From the NCBI GenBank assembly GCA_027592645.1, contig JAQCKI010000001.1, forward strand, positions 38,312-102,311: 64,000 nt of DNA, written 5' to 3'. Positions 9,902-53,842 of this stretch are shown here, in pieces. Both the position numbers and the translations under genes were made by a program. Every line of letters starts with the position of its first letter. The stretch's first letter is position 1. This DNA is from Chloroflexota bacterium (lineage in GTDB: Bacteria; Chloroflexota; Dehalococcoidia; UBA2979). The notes under the pieces were generated by a model that was given only the letters and a program-made list of their open reading frames with translations, did no database searches and had not been told where the DNA came from.

Positions 9902-10016
9902 ACTTACCCCCGCTGATCGATCCGCGGTGTGCCGCCCAACGGCGAGGCACAGCATAGTCCCCAACGAAGAGGCCCCGCCGGAGCGGGGCCTCTTCAGTCT
10001 CGTCCGAGGTGTCTCG

Positions 10017-10442
10017 CTAAGAGCAGGCGCGCGGCGTACCCGGGTTACCTGCCGTCTGGAAGGACGAACCGCAGGCGCAGGAGGACGTGGCGTTCGGGTT
10101 GTAGATGGTGAACCCGGACTTCATCAGGTCCTCGTGGTAGTCGATTTCGGCACCGGAGATCATCGGCGCGGACTCGCGGTCAATGACCACACGTACGCCG
10201 GCGTCCGTCTCGATCACCTGGTCTTCGGCCTCGGCCGCGGGGGCAATCGACATGCCGTACTGGTAGCCGGAGCAGCCGCCGCCGACCACGAAGACGCGGA
10301 GCATGCCGTCCGGGTGCCCCTTGGACTCCAAGATCGTCTTCGCCTTGGCAGCGGCGCGCTCGGTCACCGTCACCACCGCGGTGATGATCGGTTCCGGCTT
10401 CTTGGAGATCGTCTGGCCCATGCCGGAAAGCAGAGAAGTCAT
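10017..10442 (-). CDS. A-type Fe-S cluster carrier (IscA/ErpA/HesB family).
   Basis: ...LRVFVVGGGCSGYQYGMSI...NPNATSSCACGSSF; the three conserved Cys (C-x-CGCG) of HesB/IscA. Confidence 0.8.
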   Translation of the reverse strand: MTSLLSGMGQTISKKPEPIITAVVTVTERAAAKAKTILESKGHPDGMLRVFVVGGGCSGYQYGMSIAPAAEAEDQVIETDAGVRVVIDRESAPMISGAEIDYHEDLMKSGFTIYNPNATSSCACGSSFQTAGNPGTPRACS

Positions 10443-20253: not shown

Positions 20254-21723
20254 TCAGGTGACCGTCCACCACGGTTCAACGTCCGCCTCGCGATCGCCGC
20301 GGCCGATGCCCCACGAGACGATTGCCGCGGCCAGCATCAGCGCGGCGGCAGCGATGAACACCTCGCGGAACGTGGTCACCTGCGCCTCCGCGACCAGCCG
20401 CGTGAACTCCGGCGTACCGAACTCCAGCGATCCCGCGCGCGCGTAGAACCGCCCGAGTCCGCTGGAGGTGAGCAGCGCCGCGCCGATCAGCATCCCGGTC
20501 ACGCGGCTGAGGGTGAGCCATGCGGACGCCGTCGCACGCTGCGCATCGTCGACGCGCTGCAGGACGGCCGCGCCGAGCGGCGCGATCACCAGGCCGAAGC
20601 CGAAGCCGCCGATCAACTGCGGTACGGTGCGCAGCATCTGCGACAGATCGCGATCCCAGCCCTGCAGGCCGAGGAACCCGGCGGCGGCGAACGCCATCCC
20701 GAGCACGGCGGTGCCGCGTAGGCCCAGCCGCGTGCCAAGCCAGCCGCCCGCGATCGCGCCGAAGGGTACGGCCACTGTCAGCCGCATCAACGTCAGGCCG
20801 CCCTCCAACGGCGACTCGACCAGCACGAGGTTCACGAACAACGGCACGCTGATCAGCACGACGATCAGGCCGACGCCAACCAGCAGGCTCGCCACCAGCG
20901 CCGCCTGCACTCGGCCGTCACGGAAGATCTCCAGCCGCACCATCGGCTCAGGGATACGTCGCTCGTACCACACCCACATCGCCACGATGCCGGCGACGCT
21001 GGCGAGCAGCGCGGCCGTGGCTGGCAGCGAGCGGCGGGCGTTGGGGTCATCGACCAGCGTGAACGTCAGCACGGCGAGCGCGATGCCGAGCACGGCCGCG
21101 CCCGCCCAATCGATACGGCCACGCGTGCGCTCGTGCCCTGCGAGGCGCCACGCGGCGATCGCGATCGGGAGCGACATCGGCAGGTTCACCCAGAACACGG
21201 TGCGCCAGTCGAACCACTCCGTGATCGCCCCGCCCCACAGCGGCCCCAGCAGCGCACCACCCTCGGACGCCGCGGCGATGGCACCGAGGCCCATGACGCG
21301 ACGTTCGGGCGGCAACTCGGTGACCACGATCGCCATCGCCACGGGCACCACGCCACCGCCGCCCACCGCCTGCAGGGCGCGGAACGCCACCAGCGGCTCG
21401 AATGATGGCGCGAGCGCGACGAGAGCGCTGCCGAGCATGAACACGCCGAGGCAGGCCGCGAAGATGCGCGCGTGGCCGTACACATCGGCGATGCGCCCCA
21501 CCAGCGGCAGCGCCACGAGGTAGCCGAGCAGGTAGCCGTTCACCACCCAGGACGCGCGGTAAAAGTCGTCCACCGTGAGCCCGATCTCGTTGATGATCGC
21601 GGGCAGCACGGCCACGATGGAGGTCTGATCGTCGGCCGCGACAAACACGCCGGCCGCGACGGTCCAGATTAGCCATCGGCCGCGTCGAGGGTCACGTGTG
21701 GCGATGGCGGCAGGCTGGCTCAC
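20254..21723 (-). CDS. MFS drug/lipid efflux transporter (DHA2-like, 14 TMS; P55-like partner of LprG).
   Basis: ...LGRIADVYGHARIFAACLGVFMLGSAL... MFS motifs. The GTG start at 21723 overlaps the lprG-like stop (GTGA). Confidence 0.8.
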   Translation of the reverse strand: MSQPAAIATRDPRRGRWLIWTVAAGVFVAADDQTSIVAVLPAIINEIGLTVDDFYRASWVVNGYLLGYLVALPLVGRIADVYGHARIFAACLGVFMLGSALVALAPSFEPLVAFRALQAVGGGGVVPVAMAIVVTELPPERRVMGLGAIAAASEGGALLGPLWGGAITEWFDWRTVFWVNLPMSLPIAIAAWRLAGHERTRGRIDWAGAAVLGIALAVLTFTLVDDPNARRSLPATAALLASVAGIVAMWVWYERRIPEPMVRLEIFRDGRVQAALVASLLVGVGLIVVLISVPLFVNLVLVESPLEGGLTLMRLTVAVPFGAIAGGWLGTRLGLRGTAVLGMAFAAAGFLGLQGWDRDLSQMLRTVPQLIGGFGFGLVIAPLGAAVLQRVDDAQRATASAWLTLSRVTGMLIGAALLTSSGLGRFYARAGSLEFGTPEFTRLVAEAQVTTFREVFIAAAALMLAAAIVSWGIGRGDREADVEPWWTVT

Positions 21724-22412
21724 CGGGGCGCGACGATCTCCACGGGCTGATCGAAGCGGGTGAGGTCCAGGCGGCGCAGGGTGTTCTCGGCTTCCTCGGG
21801 GGTCACCGCCCCTTCGATCTCGATGCGGTAGACGAGCGAATCTTCGATGCCGACCCACGCACGCGCATGAAGTGCCCGCCCCGCCGGTGCGTCCGGTGCG
21901 AACAGATCGAGGCTGCCCGAGTCCACGGTCGCGTCTACGCGGTAGGTCTCGACGTCACCGATGCGCTCGGTGCGCGACACGGAGGCGGCGGTGACGGAGC
22001 GCATCAGCGCGGTGACGCCGGCCTCCGGGTTGAAGAACGCGGCGAGCGAGACCTCCTCGCGCTGCCAGCGCCCCGTCAGCGGGTTCGTGATGTAGGACTG
22101 CTCCGGCAGGATCACGATGCCGAGCCTCAGGTTGGAGGTGCCCAGCCGCGCCCGGATCTCCATCTGCGCCCGATCCGTCCCGGCGATGTCGCCCTCGGCG
22201 GAGACGAGTTCGAGGCCCAGCATGATGGGCGTGGTGCCGTTCTCCTGCGTCAGGACGAAGTGGAATGCCTCCACCCGGTCCATCCGCTCCGCGGCGCCGG
22301 CCAGCACCGCCTCCGCGTCGACACCTGCCACCGAGCCGCCTCCACCGCACGCCACGAGGAGCAGCGCCACCACGCCGAGCGCGACCAGGGCGATCCGATG
22401 GGCGCCGCTCAT
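21720..22412 (-). CDS. LppX/LprAFG-family lipoprotein (LprG-like lipid-binding lipoprotein).
   Basis: Signal peptide plus lipobox ALLLVACGGGG. The LppX_LprAFG-like fold is predicted from length and pattern (..FHFVLTQENG...LVSAEGDIAG...YRVDATVD..). It is translationally coupled to the downstream MFS gene, as in mycobacterial lprG-p55. Confidence 0.65.
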   Translation of the reverse strand: MSGAHRIALVALGVVALLLVACGGGGSVAGVDAEAVLAGAAERMDRVEAFHFVLTQENGTTPIMLGLELVSAEGDIAGTDRAQMEIRARLGTSNLRLGIVILPEQSYITNPLTGRWQREEVSLAAFFNPEAGVTALMRSVTAASVSRTERIGDVETYRVDATVDSGSLDLFAPDAPAGRALHARAWVGIEDSLVYRIEIEGAVTPEEAENTLRRLDLTRFDQPVEIVAPR

Positions 22413-23464
22413 CGGACGTCCACCACGGGTGCCCCGGCCTCGATGTGACCGACGATCCAGCAGCCGCCCGCCTCCGCCTCGATCGCGCTGCGGAGGGCCT
22501 CGGCGTTGTCCGGGGGCACGGCGATGAAGAGCGGGCCGGAGGTCTGCGGGTCGTAGAGGACGTGAACGAGCGCGTCGTCGAGGCCGTCCACGAGACGGAT
22601 GCGGTCACCGAGTTGTTCGCGGTTGCGGCTGGAGCCACCGGTCACCGCGCCGGCGGCGGCGAAGTGGAGCGCGTCCGGCAGCAGCGGCACCCGCGCCGCC
22701 TCGATCACCACGGTCACGTCGCTGCGCGTGGCCACCTCCGCCGCGTGCCCCATGAGGGCGTAGCCGGTGATGTCCGTCATCGCGTGGACGCCATGCGCAC
22801 GGGCGAGGTGCGAGGGGTGCCGGCTGAGTTGGAGCATGCTTGCGACGGCCGCCTCGTAGCCGGCCTCGTAGCCGTCGCGCTGCTGCTGCGCGGCGGTCAG
22901 CAGGATGCCGGTGCCGAGCGCCTTGGTCAGCAGCAGGAGGTCGCCGGGCTGCGCGCCGCTCTTCTGGATCACCGCGTCCGGGTGGATCACGCCCGTGACG
23001 GAGAGCCCGTACTTCGGCTCCTTGTCGAAGACGGTGTGGCCGCCGGCGATCACGGCGCCCGCTTCGCGCACCTTCTCTGCACCGCCCCGGAAGACCTCGG
23101 AGAGCATCGCGGGGTCAAGGTCGTCCGGCCATGCGGCGATGTTCAGCGCCAGGCGCACCTCGCCACCCATCGCGTACACATCGGAGAGCGCGTTGGCAGC
23201 GGCAATTGCGCCATACGTGTACGGGTCGTCCACCACGGGCGGGAAGAAGTCCAGCGTCTGGATCAGGGCGAGATCGGGCGCGATCCGGTAGACGGCCGCG
23301 TCGTCCGCGCCATCGAGCCCCACCATGAGATCCGGGTAGTCCGCCGGATTGAAGGTGTCGTGAATCGGGCGCAAGACCTGCGCCAGGGTCCCCAGACCCA
23401 TCTTGCCCGCTCAACCGGCGCAGGAGGCCAGGTCGGTGAGGCGGAAGATCTCTTCGCGCGTCAT
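22409..23464 (-). CDS. selD: Selenide, water dikinase (selenophosphate synthetase), selenoprotein form with an in-frame UGA.
   Basis: The ORF-track fragment starting at 23401 (MGLGTLAQVL...DDAAVYRIAPDLALIQTLDFFPPVVDDPYTYGAIAAANALSDVYAMGG) is SelD lacking its catalytic N-terminus. Reading upstream in frame on the minus strand gives MTREEIFRLTDLASCAG-TGA-AGKM..., which aligns with E. coli [14 protein letters not shown] with the TGA at the catalytic Cys/Sec position. A perfect AAAGGAGGA Shine-Dalgarno sits 7 nt before the ATG at 23464, and a hairpin lies 11 nt 3' of the UGA. Confidence 0.75.
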
Positions 23465-23580
23465 CGCCATTCCTCCTTTCGTGCGCTGGGTGCTCGCTGG
23501 GCGGATGCATCGTCGCACCCACCCTCGAGCGCGTCGAGGAGCGAACCTGCCCCACCAAGAGCCGCTGCTACCATCGGCGC

Positions 23581-24821: not shown

Positions 24822-25023
24822 AGGGCGGAGGATACCGGCCGGTGGTGCCTCAGCGCTGCTGCGGCAGGTGACAATCGCCCCTATACTCGGGCCATGGAAG
24901 GAACGGGTGCCATGACGACGCAGACCGGCCAGGACGCTTCGCGCGCTGGGCTGCTGCGCGTCCGTCGTCTTCGCCGGACAGTTGCGCACGCCACCCCCGC
25001 CCAGTAGCGGAGCACTTCCCCTC

Positions 25024-26265
25024 ATGACTTCCCTGGATGCTTCCACCCCGGCCTTCGACTGGATCGATGGCGGTGGGGTGACCACCCCCCTCGGCTTCGT
25101 CGCCGGCGCCGTATACGCCGGCATCAAGACTTACGGCGACGAGCCGCGCCTGGACCTGGGCGTGCTTGGCGGCGAGGCACCCCTCACGGCGGCTGGCGTC
25201 TTCACACGCAACGCCGTGACCGGCCACTCGGTGAGCCACGGCCGCAACCTGTTCGCCCGCACGAGCACGATTCGCGGCGTGGTGATCAACTCCGGCAACG
25301 CCAACACAGTCACCGGCACGCAGGGCGCGAAGGACTGCGCGCACCTCGCCGCGCTGGCGGGCGCTCTGCTCGGGGGCACCGCCGGTGACGTGATCGTCGG
25401 CTCCACCGGCGTCATCGGCCGCATGTTGCCGATGGCGAAGGTGGAGCGCGGGGCGAGCGAGATCACGCTCTCCCGCGACGGTGGCTACGCCTTCTCGCGG
25501 GCGATCATGACCACCGACACGCACGAGAAGCAGGCTGCGCTGCGATTCGAGGTTGCCGGGCGTGCCTACCGCGTCGGCGGCTGCGCGAAGGGCTCCGGGA
25601 TGATCCACCCGAACATGGGCACCATGTACGGCGTGGTGACCACGGACGCCCCCGTGGACGCGGCGTGGCTGGACGCCACGTGGCGCGCCATCGTCGACCG
25701 CACGTTCAACATGATCGATGTGGACATGGACACCTCCACCAGCGACATGGCCCTCGTGATGGCCTCCGGCGCGGCGGGCGGCGACCCGGTCTCCGCCGGG
25801 CACCCGGCTGAGGCGATGCTGATCGCGGCGATTGATGCCGTCGCCGGCCGCCTGGCGCGCTCAGTCGCGCGCGACGGCGAGGGCGCCACGTGCCTGATCG
25901 AGGCGACGGCGAGCGGTGCCGCCAGCGTCGAGGACGCGCGGATCGCCGCGCGCACGGTGACCTCCTCGCCTCTGGTGAAGACGGCCGTCACGGGCCGCGA
26001 CCCGAACTGGGGCCGAATCATGATGGCTGCCGGTCGCTCCGGCGCGCGTATCGACCAGGATCGCGCCAGCGTCTGGATCGGCGAGCACTGCGTCCTGGAC
26101 GCCGGCCAGCCGGTGGCCGTCGACCTGAAACTGGTCTCGGAGGCAATGGGCCACGAGGTCGTCTCGATCCGGGTGGATCTGGGCGTCGGTGACGCCTCGG
26201 CGACCGCCTGGGGCTGCAACCTGACCCACGAGTACGTATCGATCAACGCGGACTACACCACATGA
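25024..26265 (+). CDS. argJ: Bifunctional glutamate N-acetyltransferase / amino-acid acetyltransferase.
   Basis: ...GFVAGAVYAGIKTYGDEPRLDLGVL... with the autoproteolytic ATML-like site MTTDTHEK region. Length 413 aa. Confidence 0.9.
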   Translation: MTSLDASTPAFDWIDGGGVTTPLGFVAGAVYAGIKTYGDEPRLDLGVLGGEAPLTAAGVFTRNAVTGHSVSHGRNLFARTSTIRGVVINSGNANTVTGTQGAKDCAHLAALAGALLGGTAGDVIVGSTGVIGRMLPMAKVERGASEITLSRDGGYAFSRAIMTTDTHEKQAALRFEVAGRAYRVGGCAKGSGMIHPNMGTMYGVVTTDAPVDAAWLDATWRAIVDRTFNMIDVDMDTSTSDMALVMASGAAGGDPVSAGHPAEAMLIAAIDAVAGRLARSVARDGEGATCLIEATASGAASVEDARIAARTVTSSPLVKTAVTGRDPNWGRIMMAAGRSGARIDQDRASVWIGEHCVLDAGQPVAVDLKLVSEAMGHEVVSIRVDLGVGDASATAWGCNLTHEYVSINADYTT

Positions 26266-27044
26266 CCAACACGACTCCTCAGAAGCGCGCCACCGTCATC
26301 AAGATCGGCGGCTCGACGCTGGGCTCGGAGGACACGACGCTCCAGGACGTCGCCGCGCTGAACCGCGCCGGCGAGCGCGTGGTCGTCGTCCACGGCGGCG
26401 GCGCGATGATCACCGAGTGGCTGAAGAAGATGGAGATCGACTCCGTCTTTGTGGATGGCCTCCGCTCGACGAACGCCGCCGCTCTTGAGGTGGTGGTGGG
26501 CGTCCTCCGCGGCGTGGTGAACACCCAACTCGTCGGTGAGATCGTGGCCCTCGGTGGGCGCGCGGTCGGCATTTGCGGCGTCGATGGTGCCTGCGTGCGC
26601 GCCGAGCGCTACGACGACCGGCTGGAGTACGTCGGCCGCGTGACCTCGGTGGACGGTGCGTTCATCGAAGGGCTGCTGGACGCGGGTGTGATCCCGGTGA
26701 TCGCCCCGATCGGGTTCGAGGCGCCGAACCAGCCGTTGAACATCAACGCGGACACCGTCGCCGGCGAGGTGGCGCGTGCAATCAGGGCCGACTCACTGAC
26801 GTTCCTGACGGACGTGGACGGCCTGATGGACGCACAGAAGCAGGTACTGTCGGAGGTGGACGCGGCGACGGCCGCGGCCCTGCGGGCGGACGGCACGCTC
26901 GCAGGGGGTATGATCCCGAAAATTGACGCCTGCTTCCGCGCCGCCGAGGCAGGCGCGCGGGCGCTGATTGCGAATGGAACACAGCCGGGCACCCTGCGGC
27001 GGATCGCCGCCGGAGAGGCCATCGGCACGCTCATCAAGGGGTAA
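26262..27044 (+). CDS. argB: Acetylglutamate kinase.
   Basis: TVIKIGGSTLGSE...VVVHGGGAMI... amino-acid kinase family. Overlaps the argJ stop. Confidence 0.9.
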   Translation: MTNTTPQKRATVIKIGGSTLGSEDTTLQDVAALNRAGERVVVVHGGGAMITEWLKKMEIDSVFVDGLRSTNAAALEVVVGVLRGVVNTQLVGEIVALGGRAVGICGVDGACVRAERYDDRLEYVGRVTSVDGAFIEGLLDAGVIPVIAPIGFEAPNQPLNINADTVAGEVARAIRADSLTFLTDVDGLMDAQKQVLSEVDAATAAALRADGTLAGGMIPKIDACFRAAEAGARALIANGTQPGTLRRIAAGEAIGTLIKG

Positions 27045-27046
27045 AC

Positions 27047-29884
27047 ATGGGATTTCACGACGACCGAGGCAACCTGGGCCCCCCGCCGGAGCCGTTCCGG
27101 ATCAACGAGGGGCGCGAGATGCGGTCGCCTGTCCCGCTGCGCTGGCTCGCACTGGCGGCGATCGCCGTCGTCCTGTACGTCACGCTCAACGTACTGAAGT
27201 CGATCTACACCAATGCCATGTGGTTCGACTCCGTTGAGTTCGGCTCGGTCTACCGGACCGTGGTCATGTCCCGGATCACGCTCTTCGCCATCGGCGCGGT
27301 GGTCGCCGGGGTGGTCATTGGCCTGAACGTCATGATCGCCCGACGGCTCGCCCCCGCCGGCTTCGAGGCGACGCTGATCGAGGAGATCGACCCGGAGGCC
27401 GTCCGCAAGGTGCTGCTGGTGGTGCTGATCGCCGCCACGCTCTTCCTCGCGGTGATCTTCGGCAGCGTGGCCGCGGGCGCATGGGAGACCGTGCTGCTCT
27501 GGATGAATGGCGTGGAGTTCGGGCGCACGGACGTGCAGTTCAACCGCGACATCTCCTTCTACATGTTCGATCTGCCCGCCTACCAGTTCTTCCAGTCCTG
27601 GCTGCTGGGCCTGGTGATCGTCTCCGCCATCGGTGCGGGCGGCATCTACGCCCTCTCGATGTCCTTCACGCGCGGTGAAATCCGCATCGAGGGGGCCATG
27701 CGGACGCACCTGTCCGTCCTCGGCGGTCTCGCATTCCTGCTGATCGCGGCGAACACCTACCTGGGCATCTTTGGGCTCGTGAACTCGCCCACGGGCATCG
27801 TCTATGGCGCCACGTACACGGATGTGAACGCGCGCCTTCCCGTCGCCTACGTGCTGGTGGCGCTGGCCGCCTTTGCTGGCCTCGCCACGATCGCCAACGC
27901 CTTCCTGACCCGCGATGGGTTCCGGGTGCCGATCTTCGCCGTGGGCCTCTGGGTGGTCGGTGGTCTGCTCGGCGGGGTGATCTACCCCGGCACGGTGCAG
28001 GCGCTGCAGGTCGAGCCGAACGAACGCCTCCGCGAGGAGCAGTACATCTCCCGAAACATCGAAGCGACGCGGTTCGCGTGGGGTCTGGAAGACATCGTGG
28101 AGACGCGGTACCCCGCGAACCCGGTGGTGACGCAGGCGGACTTCGACGCGAACCCGAAGACGATCGAGAACGTCCGCCTGCTGGACCCGCGCCCGCTGCG
28201 CGACACCGTCAACCAGATCCAGGCGATCCGGCAGTTCTACCAGTTCACCGACATCGACGTTGACCGGTATGTCATCGACGGCGAAGAGCGCCAGGTGATG
28301 ATCGCGACCCGAGAGATGGACATCAGCCGTGTCCAGGACCGCAACTGGACGCGTGAGCGGCTGCAGTTGACGCACGGCTTCGGCGCCGTGATTGCGCCCG
28401 TGAACGAAGTGCTGCCCGCAGGCCTGCCGCGGCTGATCACGGCGGACATCCCGCCGCGCTCCGAGGTGTTGCCGATCACGACCGAAGGCGCGCGCATCTA
28501 CTTCGGTGAGCTGACCAACCATTACGTCATCGCCAACACCAGCGAGCCGCAGTTTGACTACCCGTTGGGCGAAGGCAACGCCGAAACGTCCTACACGGAA
28601 GACCGTGGGATCACGTTGAACTCACTCGCCCGTCGCATCGCACTGGCGTGGGAACTGGGCGACGCGAACCTGCTGATCTCCGGGCAGATCAACTCTGACT
28701 CGCGGCTGCTGTGGCGGCGCAACATCGTGGAGCGCGTCAGCGGGGTGGCCCCGTTCCTGATCATCGATTCCGATCCGTACGCGGTGGTGCTGGACGAGCG
28801 CATCCACTGGTTCATGACGGGTTACACCGTCTCGTCGTCGTTCCCGTACTCGCAGCCCTCGGCGGGGGTGAACTACATCCGCGATGCGGTGAAGATCACC
28901 GTGGACGCCCAGACGGGCGACATGGTGTTCTACCTGATCGCAGAGAACGACCCGGTGGCAACCACGTGGGCGAAGATCTTCCCGGACCTGTTCACGCCCA
29001 ACTCGGAGATGCCGGACGAGGTGCGTCGCCACCTCCGTTACCCGGAGGACATCTTCAAGATCCAGTCGCAGTTGTACCTCCGCTACCACATCACCAACCC
29101 CGACGTGTTCTTCATCGGCGAAGACGTGTGGAACATCCCCACGGAGCGCGTCGGATCGCTTGATGTGATTGTGGAGCCGTATTACGTCACGCTGACGCTG
29201 CCCGAAGAGGAGGACGGCGTGGCGCTCGATGAGGACATCGAGTTCGTCCTGATCATGCCGTTCACGCCGCGCAACCGGCAGAACACCGTGGCATGGTTGG
29301 CCGGCCGATCAGACGGTGAGCACTACGGTGCAATGCGCGCGTATCGCTTCCCCACGGACACGCTGGTGTACGGCCCCGCTCAGATCGAGGCTCGTATCGA
29401 CCAGAACCCGGGCATCTCGCAGCAGTTCAGCCTCTGGAACCAATCCGGCTCCGAGGTGATTCGCGGCAACCTCCTGATGATCCCGGTGGGCTCGTCGTTC
29501 CTGTTCGTGGAGCCGATCTACCTGCAGGCAGAGAACTCGCGGTTGCCGGAACTGGTGCGCGTGATTGTGGCCAACGGCAACGCACTGGCGATGGAGCGGA
29601 CGCTGCCGCACGCGCTGGACGTGGTGATGGGACGGCGGGCTTCGTCGCTGCCGAACGTGACCACGCAGACCAGCGGCGACCCGCTGAACCCGGTGCCAGG
29701 GCCGCTTCCGGATGCGACGCCGACGCCGATCATCACAGCCACACCGCAACCGCTGCCGACAGGTGACCTGGGCCTGCTGCTGGATCAGGCCCAACAGGCC
29801 TCCGACGCAACTCAGGCCGAACTGAACCGGCTGCGCGCACTGCTGGAGGCAATCCAGGTGCAACTGGAGCAACAGACGCCATAG
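27047..29884 (+). CDS. UPF0182 family large membrane protein.
   Basis: 945 aa. The N-terminal TM region has the UPF0182 signature NAMWFDSVEFGSVYRTVVMSRITLF and a large extracytoplasmic domain. It is inserted between argB and argD. Confidence 0.7.
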   Translation: MGFHDDRGNLGPPPEPFRINEGREMRSPVPLRWLALAAIAVVLYVTLNVLKSIYTNAMWFDSVEFGSVYRTVVMSRITLFAIGAVVAGVVIGLNVMIARRLAPAGFEATLIEEIDPEAVRKVLLVVLIAATLFLAVIFGSVAAGAWETVLLWMNGVEFGRTDVQFNRDISFYMFDLPAYQFFQSWLLGLVIVSAIGAGGIYALSMSFTRGEIRIEGAMRTHLSVLGGLAFLLIAANTYLGIFGLVNSPTGIVYGATYTDVNARLPVAYVLVALAAFAGLATIANAFLTRDGFRVPIFAVGLWVVGGLLGGVIYPGTVQALQVEPNERLREEQYISRNIEATRFAWGLEDIVETRYPANPVVTQADFDANPKTIENVRLLDPRPLRDTVNQIQAIRQFYQFTDIDVDRYVIDGEERQVMIATREMDISRVQDRNWTRERLQLTHGFGAVIAPVNEVLPAGLPRLITADIPPRSEVLPITTEGARIYFGELTNHYVIANTSEPQFDYPLGEGNAETSYTEDRGITLNSLARRIALAWELGDANLLISGQINSDSRLLWRRNIVERVSGVAPFLIIDSDPYAVVLDERIHWFMTGYTVSSSFPYSQPSAGVNYIRDAVKITVDAQTGDMVFYLIAENDPVATTWAKIFPDLFTPNSEMPDEVRRHLRYPEDIFKIQSQLYLRYHITNPDVFFIGEDVWNIPTERVGSLDVIVEPYYVTLTLPEEEDGVALDEDIEFVLIMPFTPRNRQNTVAWLAGRSDGEHYGAMRAYRFPTDTLVYGPAQIEARIDQNPGISQQFSLWNQSGSEVIRGNLLMIPVGSSFLFVEPIYLQAENSRLPELVRVIVANGNALAMERTLPHALDVVMGRRASSLPNVTTQTSGDPLNPVPGPLPDATPTPIITATPQPLPTGDLGLLLDQAQQASDATQAELNRLRALLEAIQVQLEQQTP

Positions 29885-29932
29885 CGGCTACGCCCGGCCG
29901 GGCCAGCCCTCAGCACGGAGAAGGAGTCCCAG

Positions 29933-31120
29933 GTGGGTGATACCCCGGCACGTGAGGCACGGGTTCACATGCAGATGTTCCGGCGTCTGCCCGTCACGCT
30001 GGTGCGTGGCGAGGGCACCCGTGTCTGGGACAACACCGGGAAGTCCTACCTGGACTTTGTCGCCGGCATCGCCGTGGATACGCTGGGTCACGCCCACCCC
30101 GGCCTCGCGGACACCATCGCCCGCCAGGCGCGGACGCTCGTGCATGTCTCCAACCTGTTCTACTCCGAGCCGCAGGTAGAACTCGCAGAGTTGCTGGTGG
30201 ACCACTCCGTGCTGGACCAGGTCTTCTTCTGCAATTCCGGTGCGGAGGCGAACGAGGGCGCGATCAAACTCGCGCGGAAGTGGGGCATCCAGAACCGCAG
30301 CGGCGCCTACGAAATCATCGCCACGCATAACGGCTTCCACGGCCGCACGCTGGCGGCCGTCGCCGCCACGGGTACGCCTCGGTACCGCGAGCCGTTTGGC
30401 CCGCAGATGCCCGGCTTCGTCTTCGTCGACTACGACGACCTGGACGCGATCAAGGCGGCCACCACGGAACGCACGTGCGCAGTGCTGCTGGAGGCGATCC
30501 AGGGCGAAGGCGGCGTGAACGTACCGGATCCCGGCTACCTGCGAGGCGTCCGCGATTGGTGCGACGCGCAGGGCATCCTGCTGATCCTGGACGAAGTTCA
30601 AACCGGCTGCGGCCGCACGGGGACGCTCTGGGCGTACGAACAGGCCGGGATTGAGCCGGACATCATGACGCTGGCGAAGGGCCTGGCCGGTGGCGTACCC
30701 ATCGGTGCGCTCCTCGCGAAGGCGCATTGCGCGGTCTTCGAGCCGGGCGACCACGGCTCCACCTTCGGGGGCAACCCCCTGGCCACGGCCGCCGGCGCAT
30801 ACGTGCTGCGCGAGGTGATCGATGGCGGCGTGCTGCAGAACGCGGCTGACCGCGGCGAGCAGCTTGAACAGCGCCTGGCAGGCATCGAAGACCGCTGTGA
30901 ACTCGCGGTGGGGCACCGCGGCGCTGGCCTGCTACGCGCGTTGGTGCTGAGTCGCGACGCCGCGGGCGAAGTGGTGTTGAAGGCGCTGGAGTACGGCCTG
31001 ATCCTGAACCCGGTCCGCCCGAACGCCGTGCGCTTCATGCCACCGTTGACGGTGACCGCCGAGGAAGTCGACGCTGCTGCGGCCATCGTGGAGCGCGTCC
31101 TCAACGAAATCGGCCCGTAG
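29933..31120 (+). CDS. argD: Acetylornithine aminotransferase (class III PLP).
   Basis: ...FCNSGAEANEGAIKLARKW..., LILDEVQTGCGRTG, TLAKGLAGGVPIGA (PLP-Lys). Confidence 0.85.
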   Translation: MGDTPAREARVHMQMFRRLPVTLVRGEGTRVWDNTGKSYLDFVAGIAVDTLGHAHPGLADTIARQARTLVHVSNLFYSEPQVELAELLVDHSVLDQVFFCNSGAEANEGAIKLARKWGIQNRSGAYEIIATHNGFHGRTLAAVAATGTPRYREPFGPQMPGFVFVDYDDLDAIKAATTERTCAVLLEAIQGEGGVNVPDPGYLRGVRDWCDAQGILLILDEVQTGCGRTGTLWAYEQAGIEPDIMTLAKGLAGGVPIGALLAKAHCAVFEPGDHGSTFGGNPLATAAGAYVLREVIDGGVLQNAADRGEQLEQRLAGIEDRCELAVGHRGAGLLRALVLSRDAAGEVVLKALEYGLILNPVRPNAVRFMPPLTVTAEEVDAAAAIVERVLNEIGP

Positions 31121-31142
31121 GCCAGCACGCGGAGGGGCGCTC

Positions 31143-33797
31143 ATGCTGCCCGGCGGCCTGAACCGGCTCGGCGTCCAGATCACGCTGACCGCAACCGTGC
31201 TGGTGCTGGCTGTCGGCGGCCTTGTCGTGTGGCAGGTGGACGGCATCATCCAGGCGAACGAGCGCGAGCGTGCTCGCGAGCGCCTGTTACTCACCCGCGA
31301 GCAGGTCGAACAGCAGTTCACGACCTACCGCGACCTTGCCGTCACCGGTGCGTCCGTCCTTGCGACGCAGCCCGAGATGCGCGCTGCGATCGAGGCGCGC
31401 GACGTGGCAGAGGTGTTGCGTGTCGCCACGCACTTCTTCTCGCAAACCGGGGCGCCACTACAGGGTGCACCCGGCCTGCAGATCTACGATCCGTCCGGTG
31501 CACTCTTGATCCGCGCCCATACCCCGCTCAACGGACGCCAGGAGTTCATACCACCGGCCATTCGTGCGGTGCTCCGCGACCGATCAGCGCTGGGTGTGCT
31601 GCGCAACGACGAGGTGTTGGGGATCGCCATCAGCGGCATCGTGCCCGTGACGGATGGCGCGGGGCGTGTCGTCGGTGTGATCGAAGCGCTCACCGGGCTG
31701 GACCGGCGCTTCGTCCGCGACCAGGCGCGGCTGCTGGGCGTGGAGGTGGCCGTTGTCCTGTGGGACGGACAGGTCATCGCCTCGGATGGCGCGGGTACCC
31801 TCCTGGCGGGTTCAATCACGTCCAATGTGCGAGCCGCATCCGCCATGGGACAGATGAGCACCGTGCAACACGGCAACGTGCCGTACCTGGCGATGGTGCT
31901 GCCGCTGACGGGGCCGGATGGTGGACCGCTGGCCGAACTCTACTTCGCCCTGGATCGCCAGGTCGTAGACTCCGCCGTCTCAAGCGTCCGCATGCGCGCG
32001 CTGCGCGCCACACTCGGCGGCGCGCTGCTGGCGTCGGCGCTCGTCATTATCTTCGCCACCCTGATCGTGCGGCCGCTCCGCTCGCTGCTGGACTCCGCGA
32101 TTGCGATCCGCTCGAACGAACTTGAACGGCCGGTGCCCCAGACAGGCCCGCAGGAGGTGCGCGAGATTGCCGCCGCGATGGACGACATGCGCCTCGCGAT
32201 CCGGCAGAGTCGGGAAGTGGCGCTGAGCGTGAACCGGGATCTCGCTTCCCGATTCGATGCCTCCGCCGCGTCGCTGTCAGACGCCACGCAGGAACTGCGC
32301 GTCATGTATCGAGTGCTGGCAGCGCTGAACGGCGAGACCCCGGGAGGGCTCGCCAGCGTGGCGGAGTTCCTCTCTGACCTCGCCTGGGTGGATTCGGCGG
32401 TCATCGGCCTTGCCACGGAGCAGGGGCGACTTTCGTTCGCCGCCGCATCCGGTGTGCCGGTCATGGCGGCACACCAGTTGCTCGGCATCGTCGAGGGTGG
32501 GGTACTCGGACAGCGGCTGGAGGACGGCTTCATCGTCTCCAGCACGGCCGCGGTTCCGGAAACGCAACTGCTGCCGGGTGCCGGCATCGGCGGCTTCGTC
32601 GCGCACCCCATGTCGCAGCCGGACGGCGTGGTCGGCGTCGTCGTCCTCGCCTCCCGCGGGCCGATCGCGGTCACACGCGAACGCACCGCACTGCTCGGCA
32701 CCATCGCCCGCGAAGTCACGGCGATGCTGGAGCGGACCGAACTCGCGGACGAGGTCGAGGAGAGCCGGCGGATCGCCGAATCCGTGCTGCGCGAGATGGC
32801 AGACGGCGTGCTGGTATTCGACCACGAGGCGCGCTGCCGCGTCTGTAACCCTGCCGCCGCACGGCTGCTGAACCGTACACGGGAAGCGCTGATCGGGCAG
32901 GCTGCCGAAGACTGCTTGCCGCTGTCGGCGGAATCGATCGAGGCCCTGCGACGTCGTGCCTACCAGCCGCACGATGGCCCGGTTTCACCGCTGCTCACGG
33001 AGGTGCGCGGTCGGCGATTGGCGGTCTCATCGGGGCCATTTGCGGACCCCGACCCGGATCGCAGCGGCATGCTGGTGCTCATCCGGGACCTCTCGGCAGA
33101 ATCGGAGGCGGAGCAGGTCAAGCAGGACTTCGTCTCCATGGTGGGGCACGAACTGCGGACGCCACTGACGCTGATCCGCACGACGATCGACCTGCTCCAC
33201 GAAGGCGACGCGGGGACGCTGAACCCCACCCAGCAGCGCATCGTGGAAGTACTGCTGGGTAACACCGACCGCCTGATGGCGTTGATCACGGACATCCTGG
33301 ATGTCTCGGCGATCGACTCGGGGCGCCTCGACATCCTGCCCGAGTACATGGACATCGGCGAGGCGATCCGCGCCGCCGTCGAAGAGGCGATGCCCGGCGC
33401 GAGCGCCAAGCAGCACACGCTGTTCACCGCAGCACCGCTGGGGATCACGGTCTGGGCGGATCAGCGCCGCATTGTGCAGGTACTGGCAAACCTGCTCAGC
33501 AACGCCGTGAAATACACCCCGCCGGGCGGTCGGATCGAGGCCGGACTGGATACGGCGGACGAGCAGATCCGCATCTGGGTCCGCGACAGTGGCATCGGCA
33601 TCCCCGAAGAGGAGCAGGAGCGCCTGTTCGAGAAGTTCTACCGCACCTCCAGCGGCCGCAGAATCACCGGGGGCACGGGGCTTGGCTTGTCAATCGCCCG
33701 ATCGCTCGTGGAGATGCACGGCGGGCGGATCTGGTGCGATTCGGACGGCGAGACCGGTTCCACGTTCGCCTTCACGCTACCGCGCCGCCGGGTATGA
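31143..33797 (+). CDS. Multi-sensor signal-transduction histidine kinase (TM sensor-HAMP-GAF-PAS-HisKA-HATPase).
   Basis: 884 aa. H-box MVGHELRTPLT; N/G boxes ...LANLLSNAVKYTPPGGRIEA...DSGIGIPEEEQERLFEKFYR...GTGLGLSIARSLVEMHGGRIW. Confidence 0.8.
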   Translation: MLPGGLNRLGVQITLTATVLVLAVGGLVVWQVDGIIQANERERARERLLLTREQVEQQFTTYRDLAVTGASVLATQPEMRAAIEARDVAEVLRVATHFFSQTGAPLQGAPGLQIYDPSGALLIRAHTPLNGRQEFIPPAIRAVLRDRSALGVLRNDEVLGIAISGIVPVTDGAGRVVGVIEALTGLDRRFVRDQARLLGVEVAVVLWDGQVIASDGAGTLLAGSITSNVRAASAMGQMSTVQHGNVPYLAMVLPLTGPDGGPLAELYFALDRQVVDSAVSSVRMRALRATLGGALLASALVIIFATLIVRPLRSLLDSAIAIRSNELERPVPQTGPQEVREIAAAMDDMRLAIRQSREVALSVNRDLASRFDASAASLSDATQELRVMYRVLAALNGETPGGLASVAEFLSDLAWVDSAVIGLATEQGRLSFAAASGVPVMAAHQLLGIVEGGVLGQRLEDGFIVSSTAAVPETQLLPGAGIGGFVAHPMSQPDGVVGVVVLASRGPIAVTRERTALLGTIAREVTAMLERTELADEVEESRRIAESVLREMADGVLVFDHEARCRVCNPAAARLLNRTREALIGQAAEDCLPLSAESIEALRRRAYQPHDGPVSPLLTEVRGRRLAVSSGPFADPDPDRSGMLVLIRDLSAESEAEQVKQDFVSMVGHELRTPLTLIRTTIDLLHEGDAGTLNPTQQRIVEVLLGNTDRLMALITDILDVSAIDSGRLDILPEYMDIGEAIRAAVEEAMPGASAKQHTLFTAAPLGITVWADQRRIVQVLANLLSNAVKYTPPGGRIEAGLDTADEQIRIWVRDSGIGIPEEEQERLFEKFYRTSSGRRITGGTGLGLSIARSLVEMHGGRIWCDSDGETGSTFAFTLPRRRV

Positions 33798-38223: not shown

Positions 38224-38897
38224 TGCCTGCGATCCAGATCGCCCCCAGCATCCTGACCGCCGACTTCGGCCGGCTCGCCGAGCAGGTGCGCGAGGCGGAG
38301 GCGGGTGGCTGTGACCTCTGGCATCTGGACGTGATGGACGGGCACTTCGTCCCACCGCTGTCGTTCGGCCGCGAGGTGATCGCGGCGGTGCGGGCCGCCT
38401 CGGACGGGCGGTTCATCGAGGCGCACCTGATGGTGGAGCGCCCGGGCGAGCAGTTCGCGGACATGGCCGCGGCCGGCGCGCAGCGGCTGATCTTCCACTA
38501 CGAGGCGGCGGGCAACCTCGACCGTGCGCGTGAACACATCGGCGCGGCGCGCGCGCTCGGCTGCCAGGTGGGGCTCGCGATCAACCCGGAGACGGCCGTG
38601 CGCGACATCGCGCCGCTGCTGGCCGAACTGGACGAGGTCACCGTGATGCTGATCCGCCCCGGCTGGGGCGGCCAGGCGATGCGGCCCGATCTGCTGACGA
38701 AGGTCACGGACCTCGCCATGCGCGTGCGGGCCGAGGGCGTCGCGCTGCAGATCGAGGTCGATGGCGGCGTGAAGGCTCACAACGCGCACTCGTGCGCGGC
38801 GGCAGGTGCCACGATCCTGGTCGCCGGCTCCGCCGTCTTCAATGCGGAGCAGACGCCACAGGCCGCCCTCGCGGAGTTGCGCGGCGCGATCGGGTAA
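38223..38897 (+). CDS. rpe: Ribulose-phosphate 3-epimerase.
   Basis: IAPSILTADFGRLAEQV...LHLDVMDGHFVPPLSFG...HLMV...VDGGV. Confidence 0.85.
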   Translation: MPAIQIAPSILTADFGRLAEQVREAEAGGCDLWHLDVMDGHFVPPLSFGREVIAAVRAASDGRFIEAHLMVERPGEQFADMAAAGAQRLIFHYEAAGNLDRAREHIGAARALGCQVGLAINPETAVRDIAPLLAELDEVTVMLIRPGWGGQAMRPDLLTKVTDLAMRVRAEGVALQIEVDGGVKAHNAHSCAAAGATILVAGSAVFNAEQTPQAALAELRGAIG

Positions 38898-52680: not shown

Positions 52681-52932
52681 CTATCCGTTCTCGTCCTCGC
52701 CCGCCAGCGCCACCAGCACCTCCGGCGAGCAGCCGAGCGCGCGCAGTTGCCGCGCGAACATCGCGCGTTGGCGTGCGGCGATGGCGATGTCGTCCGGGTG
52801 GAAGCGCCCCTCCGTATCGTCGGCGACGAGGTCGTAGCGTTGCCACTCGCGAAAGAGCGCGCGGCACTCATCATCGTGCGCGTGTGTGGCGTGCTCGGGC
52901 GTGCCGTCGGGCATCGTGCGCTCCTCCGGCAC
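52681..52932 (-). CDS. Small hypothetical protein.
   Basis: 83 aa, acidic, no recognised motif. Coding status is uncertain. Confidence 0.3.
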   Translation of the reverse strand: MPEERTMPDGTPEHATHAHDDECRALFREWQRYDLVADDTEGRFHPDDIAIAARQRAMFARQLRALGCSPEVLVALAGEDENG

Positions 52933-52990
52933 GATGCTACGGTGCGACCTCGATGCGGGCGACGTGGGAGCCGATGCAAGGGGGCGGGCG

Positions 52991-53254
52991 ATGGGCCACG
53001 AACTGGAGCGCGAGGAGCGCGAGCACGCGGTGGCCCGTCTCGCGTCGTACCTGCGCGCCGAGCGCGAGGAGCCATGGAACGACCTGGCGGTGCAGTTGCT
53101 GCTCGCGGAAATCGAGGAGCAGGTGGCGCCGCTCTACTACAACCGCGGCATCGCCGACGCGCAGCACGTCCTCGCCGACATCAACGAACGTATCGAGGTG
53201 AACCTGGACGCCCTCAAGCGCCTGCCCCCGGCGCGCCGGCCGGGGGAGCGGTAG
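52991..53254 (+). CDS. DUF2164 domain protein.
   Basis: LEREEREHAVARLASYLRAEREEPWNDLAVQLLLAEIEEQVAPLYYNRGIADA fits the DUF2164 pattern. Confidence 0.5.
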   Translation: MGHELEREEREHAVARLASYLRAEREEPWNDLAVQLLLAEIEEQVAPLYYNRGIADAQHVLADINERIEVNLDALKRLPPARRPGER

Positions 53255-53266
53255 GCGCGGTATCCC

Positions 53267-53842
53267 TCAGGCCTTGCCGGGCACGCGGATCTTCTCGCGC
53301 GCGGCGCGGATGGTGCCGGCGACGCGGGTGGTGCGAGTCTCGTCACGCTTCGCGCTCTTGATCCACCAGAGGAACTGACGGCGCACGGAGGGAGCGAACG
53401 CTTCCCAGTGGTCACGCGCGAGCGGATCGGCCTCGAGCGCAGCGGCGAGGTCGGGCGGCATCACGAGATTATCGATGTCGTCGAGGAGCGACCAGGAGCC
53501 GTCCGCCTTCGCACGGTCGATGACCACCCGGCCCGCCGGGGTCATGAGGCCGGCGGCCTCCAGGTGTTCGATGCGCTGCTTGTTCAGCGCCGACCAGATG
53601 CTCCCCGCCCGCCGAGGTGAGAGGTAGAGCCTTGACCGGTCGTCGTCGAACTCGCGCCGCGTACTGTCGATCCAGCCGAAGCACAGCGCTTCCTCCACGA
53701 TTTCCGCATAGGCGAGGTAGTGCGGGTGATGTTTGCGGTAGGTGACGAGCCAGATCGCCTGCGGGGACGCGTGGCTCGTCTCCAGCCACCAGCGCCAGTC
53801 GGCGCGGCTGTCCATGTGGACCTCGGGCTCCTCGTGACTCAA
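53267..53842 (-). CDS. YdeI/OmpD-associated family protein (DUF1801-like).
   Basis: ...WRWWLETSHASPQAIWLVTYRKHH...FGWIDS... a pattern typical of the YdeI family. Confidence 0.5.
   Translation of the reverse strand: MSHEEPEVHMDSRADWRWWLETSHASPQAIWLVTYRKHHPHYLAYAEIVEEALCFGWIDSTRREFDDDRSRLYLSPRRAGSIWSALNKQRIEHLEAAGLMTPAGRVVIDRAKADGSWSLLDDIDNLVMPPDLAAALEADPLARDHWEAFAPSVRRQFLWWIKSAKRDETRTTRVAGTIRAAREKIRVPGKA

Follow-up and report, generated by a model that had tools for sequence, protein, structure and literature searches.

The 64,000-nucleotide stretch of DNA analysed here (positions 38,312 to 102,311 of contig JAQCKI010000001.1, assembly GCA_027592645.1, from a Chloroflexota bacterium; the whole stretch is called the window below) carries on its minus strand a gene for SelD (selenide, water dikinase, or selenophosphate synthetase) in which an in-frame UGA lies close to the start. 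The selD frame opens with an ATG at 23464–23462, passes through a TGA at 23413–23411 and ends with a second TGA at 22411–22409. The full-length coding sequence (CDS; 22409..23464, minus strand) therefore has 351 codons before its stop, counting codon 18, the UGA that we propose to be read as selenocysteine (Sec). Its N-terminal translation is MTREEIFRLTDLASCAG-UGA-AGKMGLGTLAQVL..., and contains Cys15 (TGC, 23422–23420), Lys21 (AAG, 23404–23402) and an internal Met22 (ATG, 23401–23399). A Shine–Dalgarno (SD) sequence, AAAGGAGGA, can be read at 23479–23471 on the same strand. The initial annotation, a reading of the bare sequence made before this analysis, had placed a perfect SD 7 nt ahead of the ATG; the motif is indeed perfect, but the spacer is 6 nt. 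The same start position is kept in relatives, as ATG in L007 and as GTG in L008–L010 (L numbers denote related loci), and SD-like GGAGG/GAGGGAG motifs lie upstream of the equivalent ATG/GTG starts in L007–L010 and L022. An earlier start is ruled out because L007 has an in-frame TGA two codons upstream of its ATG. The alternative in-frame ATG at 23470 is implausible as a start, since it abuts the SD directly.

For protein searches the UGA was replaced by Cys. The translated product scores 358.7 bits (cutoff 125) with TIGR00476, the NCBIfam equivalog for selD; the aligned region spans residues 8–320 and thus starts upstream of the UGA. NF002098 is also matched (313.3 bits, cutoff 299), and PF00586 and PF02769 (AIRS and AIRS_C) are recorded for a public copy of the gene. 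The top PDB matches are the SelD proteins from Escherichia coli and Aquifex aeolicus (2yye), the former (3u0o) with E = 1e-59 over residues 4–331. HMMER places the query EEIFRLTDLASCAG[U]AGKMGLGTLAQVL on E. coli SelD with the UGA on Cys17 and Lys21 on Lys20, in agreement with the residue-for-residue alignment drawn in the initial annotation, and the UGA also falls on the GCAAK position of the A. aeolicus SelD chain. Cys17 and Lys20 are essential for the activity of E. coli SelD. Lys21 is invariant in all 13 aligned sequences, as is Cys15 (TGC in 12 and TGT in one), and the Cys-type orthologues, with SCAG-C-AAK, have Cys15 too. The resulting motif is C-A-G-U (C-A-G-C in the Cys-type orthologues), with Gly, Ala or Ser two residues after the Sec position; Cys15 might form a selenenylsulfide with Sec18. 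The gene is very probably a selD in its selenoprotein form.

Public records present a shorter protein. Both a mechanical open reading frame (ORF) list and the public gene calls begin at the internal ATG at 23401, a wrong start that yields 330 amino acids and leaves out the residues aligned to Cys17 and Lys20. The initial annotation had recognized that this start omits the catalytic N-terminus and that a standard gene caller would truncate the gene, and the NCBI records MQC47870.1 and MDA0269462.1, both 330 residues long and named 'SelD [Chloroflexi bacterium]', bear this out. The 330-residue version is encoded identically on four public contigs from independent assemblies, with a gene identity of 99.96–100%; QWJE01000020.1 (from the metagenome-assembled genome, or MAG, GCA_009391795.1) and an ENA metagenome scaffold are 99.96–99.99% identical to the window. 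Among genome representatives, the nearest are MAGs of Chloroflexota and Dehalococcoidia. Because four assemblies agree, the selD sequence is reproducible and the UGA is not an error.

The UGA is also conserved far beyond these near-identical copies. A scan of a genome collection returned 14 related loci, of which 12 cover the N-terminus without a frameshift, and TGA occupies this codon in all 12; Thermomicrobium sp. CFH 73360 (NZ_JAMSLS01) is among them, as are MAGs of Chloroflexia and Anaerolineales, at only 52–58% protein identity. A 6.64-Mb ENA contig and JGI metagenomes supplied seven further UGA forms. In the alignment of UGA-type DNA sequences (A2; the window and 19 relatives), TGA stands at codon 18 in 20 of 20; the SelD proteins of the relatives are 52–90% identical to that of the window, and Dehalococcoidia, Chloroflexia, Thermomicrobiales and Anaerolineales are represented. 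Upstream of the UGA, residues R8, L9, T10, A13, C15, A16 and G17 are invariant in the codon alignment (13/13), while their codons vary freely, and the mean codon entropy is 1.37 bits there versus 1.08 bits in the remaining gene (13 sequences). Since the ten codons ahead of the UGA keep their amino acids while their synonymous sites change, the upstream frame is translated, and the pattern points to purifying selection on the upstream peptide in frame with the gene body. The in-frame UGA is hence conserved in orthologues, aligned with Cys in homologues and flanked by coding sequence on both sides. A related locus from a long-read MAG, L020 (JAXLWY010000011.1, approximately 10001–10365), has single-base indels around the Sec codon, with GGCTGGAGCC in place of GGCTGAGCGGGC, and is out of frame; these are likely to be assembly errors rather than the mark of a pseudogene, and this locus was left out of all counts.

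These data bear on the simplest alternative, that the UGA is a real stop, either because selD is truncated or inactivated and starts at ATG 23401, or because the TGA is an assembly error. Gene callers do yield 330 residues, and most database homologues are likewise 330-residue proteins. However, such a product would lack the residues aligned to E. coli Cys17 and Lys20, no SD can be read ahead of ATG 23401 whereas a perfect one precedes ATG 23464, and the 17 codons upstream of the UGA keep their amino acids with free synonymous sites across 13 lineages. The identity of the TGA in four assemblies and in 19 relatives excludes both an error and a recent decay, and we consider a true stop extremely unlikely. 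A general reassignment of UGA is excluded as well, as TGA acts as an ordinary stop in the window: selD and many further ORFs whose codon composition looks coding terminate with it. Decoding of codon 18 therefore requires recoding at that specific site. Family, alignment, conserved TGA, upstream selection and truncated records agree with the central claim of the initial annotation that selD is a UGA-containing selenoprotein gene, and the UGA at the catalytic residue is almost certainly read as Sec.

Sec insertion in bacteria calls for a selenocysteine insertion sequence (SECIS) inside the CDS, and two hairpins are found downstream of the UGA, both as the initial annotation had written them. Hairpin 1 (GGGUC-UGGG-GACCC; 23399–23386, minus strand) starts 11 nt past the UGA and has its loop at a spacing of 16 nt, with a folding free energy of −6.6 kcal/mol. 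Hairpin 2 (GGCGCAG-GUC-UUGCGCC; 23384–23368, minus strand) has a 7-bp stem, a GUC loop 33 nt past the UGA and a free energy of −9.3 kcal/mol. Stability on its own was not informative. The fold of the 64 nt past the UGA is no more stable than those of dinucleotide shuffles (z = 0.11), and the 48 nt past the UGA show no extra stability over synonymous recodings and behave like control segments of the gene. Because stability carries little information in DNA of 69% GC, the thermodynamic test was replaced by a model-specific one. The bacterial SECIS (bSECIS) model, as quoted in PMC13188914, asks for a loop of 3–9 nt with a G at its first or second position, a stem of 4–16 bp, a UGA-to-loop spacing of 16–37 nt and a free energy of −7.5 kcal/mol or lower. 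Hairpin 2 satisfies it in full, its 3-nt loop starting with G. Hairpin 1 fails the energy limit and lies at the lower limit of the spacing. The published model is thus matched by hairpin 2 and not by hairpin 1, which the initial annotation had favoured.

A hairpin that fits the model would be expected at 11–12% of comparable positions or recodings in the selD of the window, and the case that the hairpins exceed chance is made by the comparative evidence only. A model-fitting hairpin is present in 12 of the 13 sequences, where synonymous recodings would lead one to expect 21% and other in-frame positions within these genes 10%; in ten of the 13, hairpin 2 itself fits. The UGA-type selD of the ENA contig ERZ21829562:ctg258104l, at 69% identity, has an identical hairpin 2. 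Both hairpins are recovered in the RNAalifold consensus, and over 20 sequences 91% of the cells are paired for hairpin 2 and 78% for hairpin 1. An outer helix joining the UGA region to the sequence after hairpin 2, seen in several single-sequence folds, is absent from the consensus fold and was discarded. At the codon level (13 sequences), the 5' arm of hairpin 2 encodes Leu27 and Ala28 always as CTG and GCG (13/13), while the loop codon, for Val30, uses all four third bases, and changes in the 3' arm (TTG/CTG, CGC/CGT) keep the pairing. Hairpin 2 has the apex GCAGGUCUUGC, which is similar to GCAGGUCUGC, the apex of the fdhF SECIS of E. coli as read from NC_000913. The 120 best homologue clusters from the protein collection divide into 17 full-length Cys forms and 103 that are truncated at the N-terminus, 94 of the latter starting at Met22. 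The peptide LA[QH]VL[RQ]P over the hairpin-2 codons occurs in 91 of the 94 Met22-start forms versus none of the 17 Cys forms, where the sequence is LHDVLA, LAEVLG or the like. At gathering thresholds, Rfam gave no match anywhere in the window. This was not counted against a SECIS, as Rfam is not known to include a bacterial SECIS family.

On this evidence we take hairpin 2 to be the most likely SECIS, with moderate confidence, and hairpin 1 probably serves as a spacer or an auxiliary element, not as the apex bound by the elongation factor SelB. It is nevertheless possible, if doubtful, that the UGA is decoded with hairpin 1, or both hairpins jointly, as the SelB-binding SECIS instead of hairpin 2 alone. 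Hairpin 1 starts exactly 11 nt past the UGA, as in the E. coli spacing rule, and the clear compensatory change over the 20 sequences, one UA-to-CG pair, lies in it; hairpin 2 is nearly invariant, its changes being GC-to-GU. In three Thermomicrobiales-like loci (L013, 632–697; L014, 10049–10114; L031, 2332–2397) a replacement of Arg32 by Ala breaks hairpin 2, and the sole model-fitting hairpin is one of 8 bp, GCGCCGGG-GUC/GGC-CCUGGCGC, at the hairpin-1 position; its loop lies 20 nt past the UGA and its 3' arm is the 5' arm of hairpin 2. The position of the SECIS appears to have shifted within the family. In L018 hairpin 1 alone is stable, at −7.1 kcal/mol. Set against this are the energy of hairpin 1 in the window, which misses the −7.5 kcal/mol limit, its borderline spacing and its lower fraction of paired cells. 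In most relatives, L008, L009, L015, L016 and L017 among them, the loop of hairpin 1 also lacks the required G, and its stem is broken in L010.

Cys-type orthologues offer a natural comparison. The codon at the Sec position of the Cys-type homologues is TGC or TGT. P0024 (locus L025), with TGC, encodes a SelD 70% identical to that of the window within the same gene order (histidine kinase, argD, UPF0182, argB, argJ, acetyltransferase and endonuclease III-like genes are common to both), and here both hairpins are destroyed. The initial annotation had named TGC in close relatives, together with N-terminal degeneration, as grounds for abandoning its claim. TGC does occur in this one sister lineage, but the N-terminus is complete there, and a TGC lineage without the hairpins conforms to the expected pattern of a Sec-to-Cys conversion rather than to decay of the window copy. 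A second Cys-type locus, L034 (10052–10117; JGI Ga0137436_1000007), has TGT, is 54% identical and keeps both hairpins, with an intact GGCGCAG-GUG-CUGCGCC; this is apparently a fossil SECIS that has outlasted a recent Sec-to-Cys conversion. Conversions of this kind with SECIS remnants have been documented for SelD (PMC1794560). The Cys-type SelD proteins of these sister Chloroflexota (P0024/L025, L034) share the N-terminal motif LASCAG-x-A.K with the window; L025 differs from the window in having TGC for TGA, no hairpins, and none of the lipoprotein and transporter genes that follow selD in the window.

The genes for Sec synthesis and insertion are not linked to selD in this lineage. ARAGORN found no tRNA gene of any kind in the 64-kb window and no tRNA-Sec in the related loci, and tblastn with SelA and SelB, taken either from E. 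coli or from Miltoncostaea oceani (a GC-rich actinobacterium with a selD–selA–selB cluster), gave no match, either in the window or in the related loci, some 30 in number and up to 21 kb long. In a tblastn search of plasmids with E. coli SelB, made in order to obtain a Chloroflexota SelB query, no Chloroflexota record was among the matches listed. Chloroflexi have been reported to possess the Sec-decoding trait but not the selenouridine trait (PMC1794560, PMC5322559), and together with the conserved UGA and SECIS this leads us to infer that selA, selB and selC reside elsewhere in the genome. Two scans of the window for in-frame TGA revealed no second selenoprotein gene, although these scans also missed the UGA of selD and are insensitive near gene starts; all of their candidates were antisense or not protein-like. 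One TGA, at 53267–53269 (minus strand), has coding-like GC3 on both sides and an 8-bp hairpin (−18 kcal/mol) 28 nt downstream. It was rejected as a Sec codon, its downstream frame being Arg/Pro-rich and antisense to a plus-strand ORF at 52838–53254, and it is better taken for an ordinary stop with a terminator-like hairpin behind it. A glutaredoxin-like gene near selD in relatives was also considered as a selenoprotein gene, and has no in-frame UGA.

A further alternative concerns the inserted residue, which cannot be read from sequence alone: the UGA might be read through with another amino acid, either Cys carried by SelB on a Sec-like tRNA, or Trp or Cys through near-cognate decoding, to give an enzyme that functions as a Cys-type SelD. 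A few bacteria have been described in which Sec-like tRNAs insert Cys at UGA, orthologues at 70% identity show that the enzyme can work with Cys at this position, and no Sec machinery was found in the available sequence. Yet the UGA forms specifically keep a SECIS-model hairpin that the TGC orthologue has lost, which is the mark of recoding by SelB. Sec-containing SelD is common, Chloroflexi have a documented Sec trait, and near-cognate read-through, being inefficient, would not hold a UGA across lineages down to 52% SelD identity. We therefore regard insertion of another residue as very unlikely.

Several observations weigh against Sec insertion directed by the downstream hairpins. The hairpins are no more stable than background. 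Covariation is weak, hairpin 2 being mostly invariant, and the observed covariation score is reached by 11 of 500 shuffles, a figure confounded by the overlapping coding constraint. Hairpin 2 is missing from L013, L014 and L031, and L018 has no model-fitting hairpin at all. The nucleotides of hairpin 2 encode the conserved peptide LAQVLRP and the Cys-type L034 keeps both hairpins, for which reason constraint at the protein level and at the RNA level cannot be fully separated. Finally, no selA, selB or tRNA-Sec lies in the window or within about 10 kb of selD in the related loci, and the window scans, insensitive near gene starts, gave no second selenoprotein gene.

With Sec as the residue at codon 18, the synthesis of SelD would proceed as follows. 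Translation would start at ATG 23464 behind the strong SD. At UGA18, SelB with GTP and Sec-tRNA(Sec), bound to the SECIS within the CDS, would deliver Sec by the standard bacterial mechanism; the SECIS would be hairpin 2 (23384–23368), with the weaker hairpin 1 placed between it and the UGA. Sec18 would then take the place that the catalytic Cys17 has in E. coli SelD, within the flexible N-terminal loop rich in glycine (SCAG-U-AGK), and the 351-residue product would form selenophosphate from selenide and ATP. Since selenophosphate is needed for Sec-tRNA(Sec), selD would depend on its own product.

Two genes follow selD on the minus strand. The first (21720..22412) encodes an LppX/LprAFG-family lipoprotein, and its ATG overlaps the stop codon of selD (ATGA); the second (20254..21723) encodes a major facilitator superfamily (MFS) transporter, and its GTG overlaps the stop codon of the lipoprotein gene (GTGA). 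The assignments come from PF07161 and PF07690 on the identical genes in L003. These overlaps suggest that the three genes (20254–23464) form one translationally coupled operon. The lipoprotein–MFS pair lies 3' of selD in every close UGA-type relative with enough downstream sequence (L007–L011, L022 and L028–L030), and is absent after the syntenic Cys-type selD (L025–L027) and in distant UGA forms. The pair is reminiscent of the lprG–Rv1410c arrangement of mycobacteria. A scan of the intergenic region for promoters and terminators found nothing. On the plus strand, at 24916–33797, an argJ, argB and argD cluster is interrupted by a gene for a UPF0182 membrane protein of about 945 residues and a dCache/HAMP/PAS histidine kinase gene comes next. 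UGA-type and Cys-type relatives share this gene order.

One could go further and propose that SelD is the sole, or nearly the sole, selenoprotein of this clade, and that the strict coupling of UGA-type selD to the LprG-like and MFS genes links selenium to transport. We think this very improbable. If it were true, a whole Sec-decoding apparatus would be kept just to make SelD, the enzyme that feeds it; the SelB-binding loop would lie 33 nt from the UGA within an unusual two-hairpin SECIS; the catalytic loop would carry a C-x-x-U redox motif; and the gene pair, missing in the Cys-type L025–L027, would point to a connection of selenium handling with transport that has so far gone unrecognised.

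In more sober terms, this selD is a further Sec-containing SelD, a member of a known family, in an uncultured Chloroflexota lineage, and it leaves selenoprotein biology unchanged. Its main value is as a correction of annotation: the protein on deposit, at 330 residues, is missing the catalytic loop, and the Met immediately past the UGA position is also where at least 94 of the 120 closest homologue clusters begin. With the selD records truncated, the use of Sec would go unnoticed when the metabolism of these Chloroflexota MAGs, obtained from bioreactor, soil and sediment samples, is reconstructed. Correct reading of the gene implies a selenium requirement, and selA, selB and selC, in these uncultured organisms. 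In addition, a natural Sec/Cys pair with conserved gene order, together with one Cys form that carries a putative fossil SECIS, would be useful for studies of Sec-to-Cys conversion.

FdhA and SelD are the two most widespread selenoprotein families of bacteria (PMC1794560, PMC13188914), SelD ranking second, and the features described above can be set beside known systems. The selD of the window is like that of A. aeolicus (2yye/2zod) in belonging to TIGR00476, in placing the UGA in an N-terminal glycine-rich loop followed by A-x-K, in carrying its SECIS within the CDS and in being a type of gene that gene callers routinely truncate. The solved A. aeolicus chain reads SSG-C-AAK, its Cys standing in for the Sec of the native protein, versus CAG-U-AGK in the window. 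The gene of the window differs from known Sec-containing SelD in its origin (uncultured Chloroflexota related to Dehalococcoidia MAGs), in an extra invariant Cys three residues before Sec, and in the coupling of selD to LprG-like lipoprotein and MFS genes rather than a position near selA/selB or ybbB. E. coli SelD (3u0o) has Cys17 (TGC) with a second Cys at +2 (G-C-G-C-K) and needs no SECIS, whereas the SelD of the window has Sec, Gly at +2 and Cys at −3. The candidate SelB site of the window is, like the fdhF SECIS of E. coli, an in-ORF stem-loop, with the apex GCA-GGUCU-UGC, almost identical to GCA-GGUC-UGC in fdhF. It differs in the distance of the loop from the UGA (33 nt versus 18 nt, the latter counted from the fdhF sequence), in the separate small hairpin that lies in between, and in the absence of an evident bulged U.

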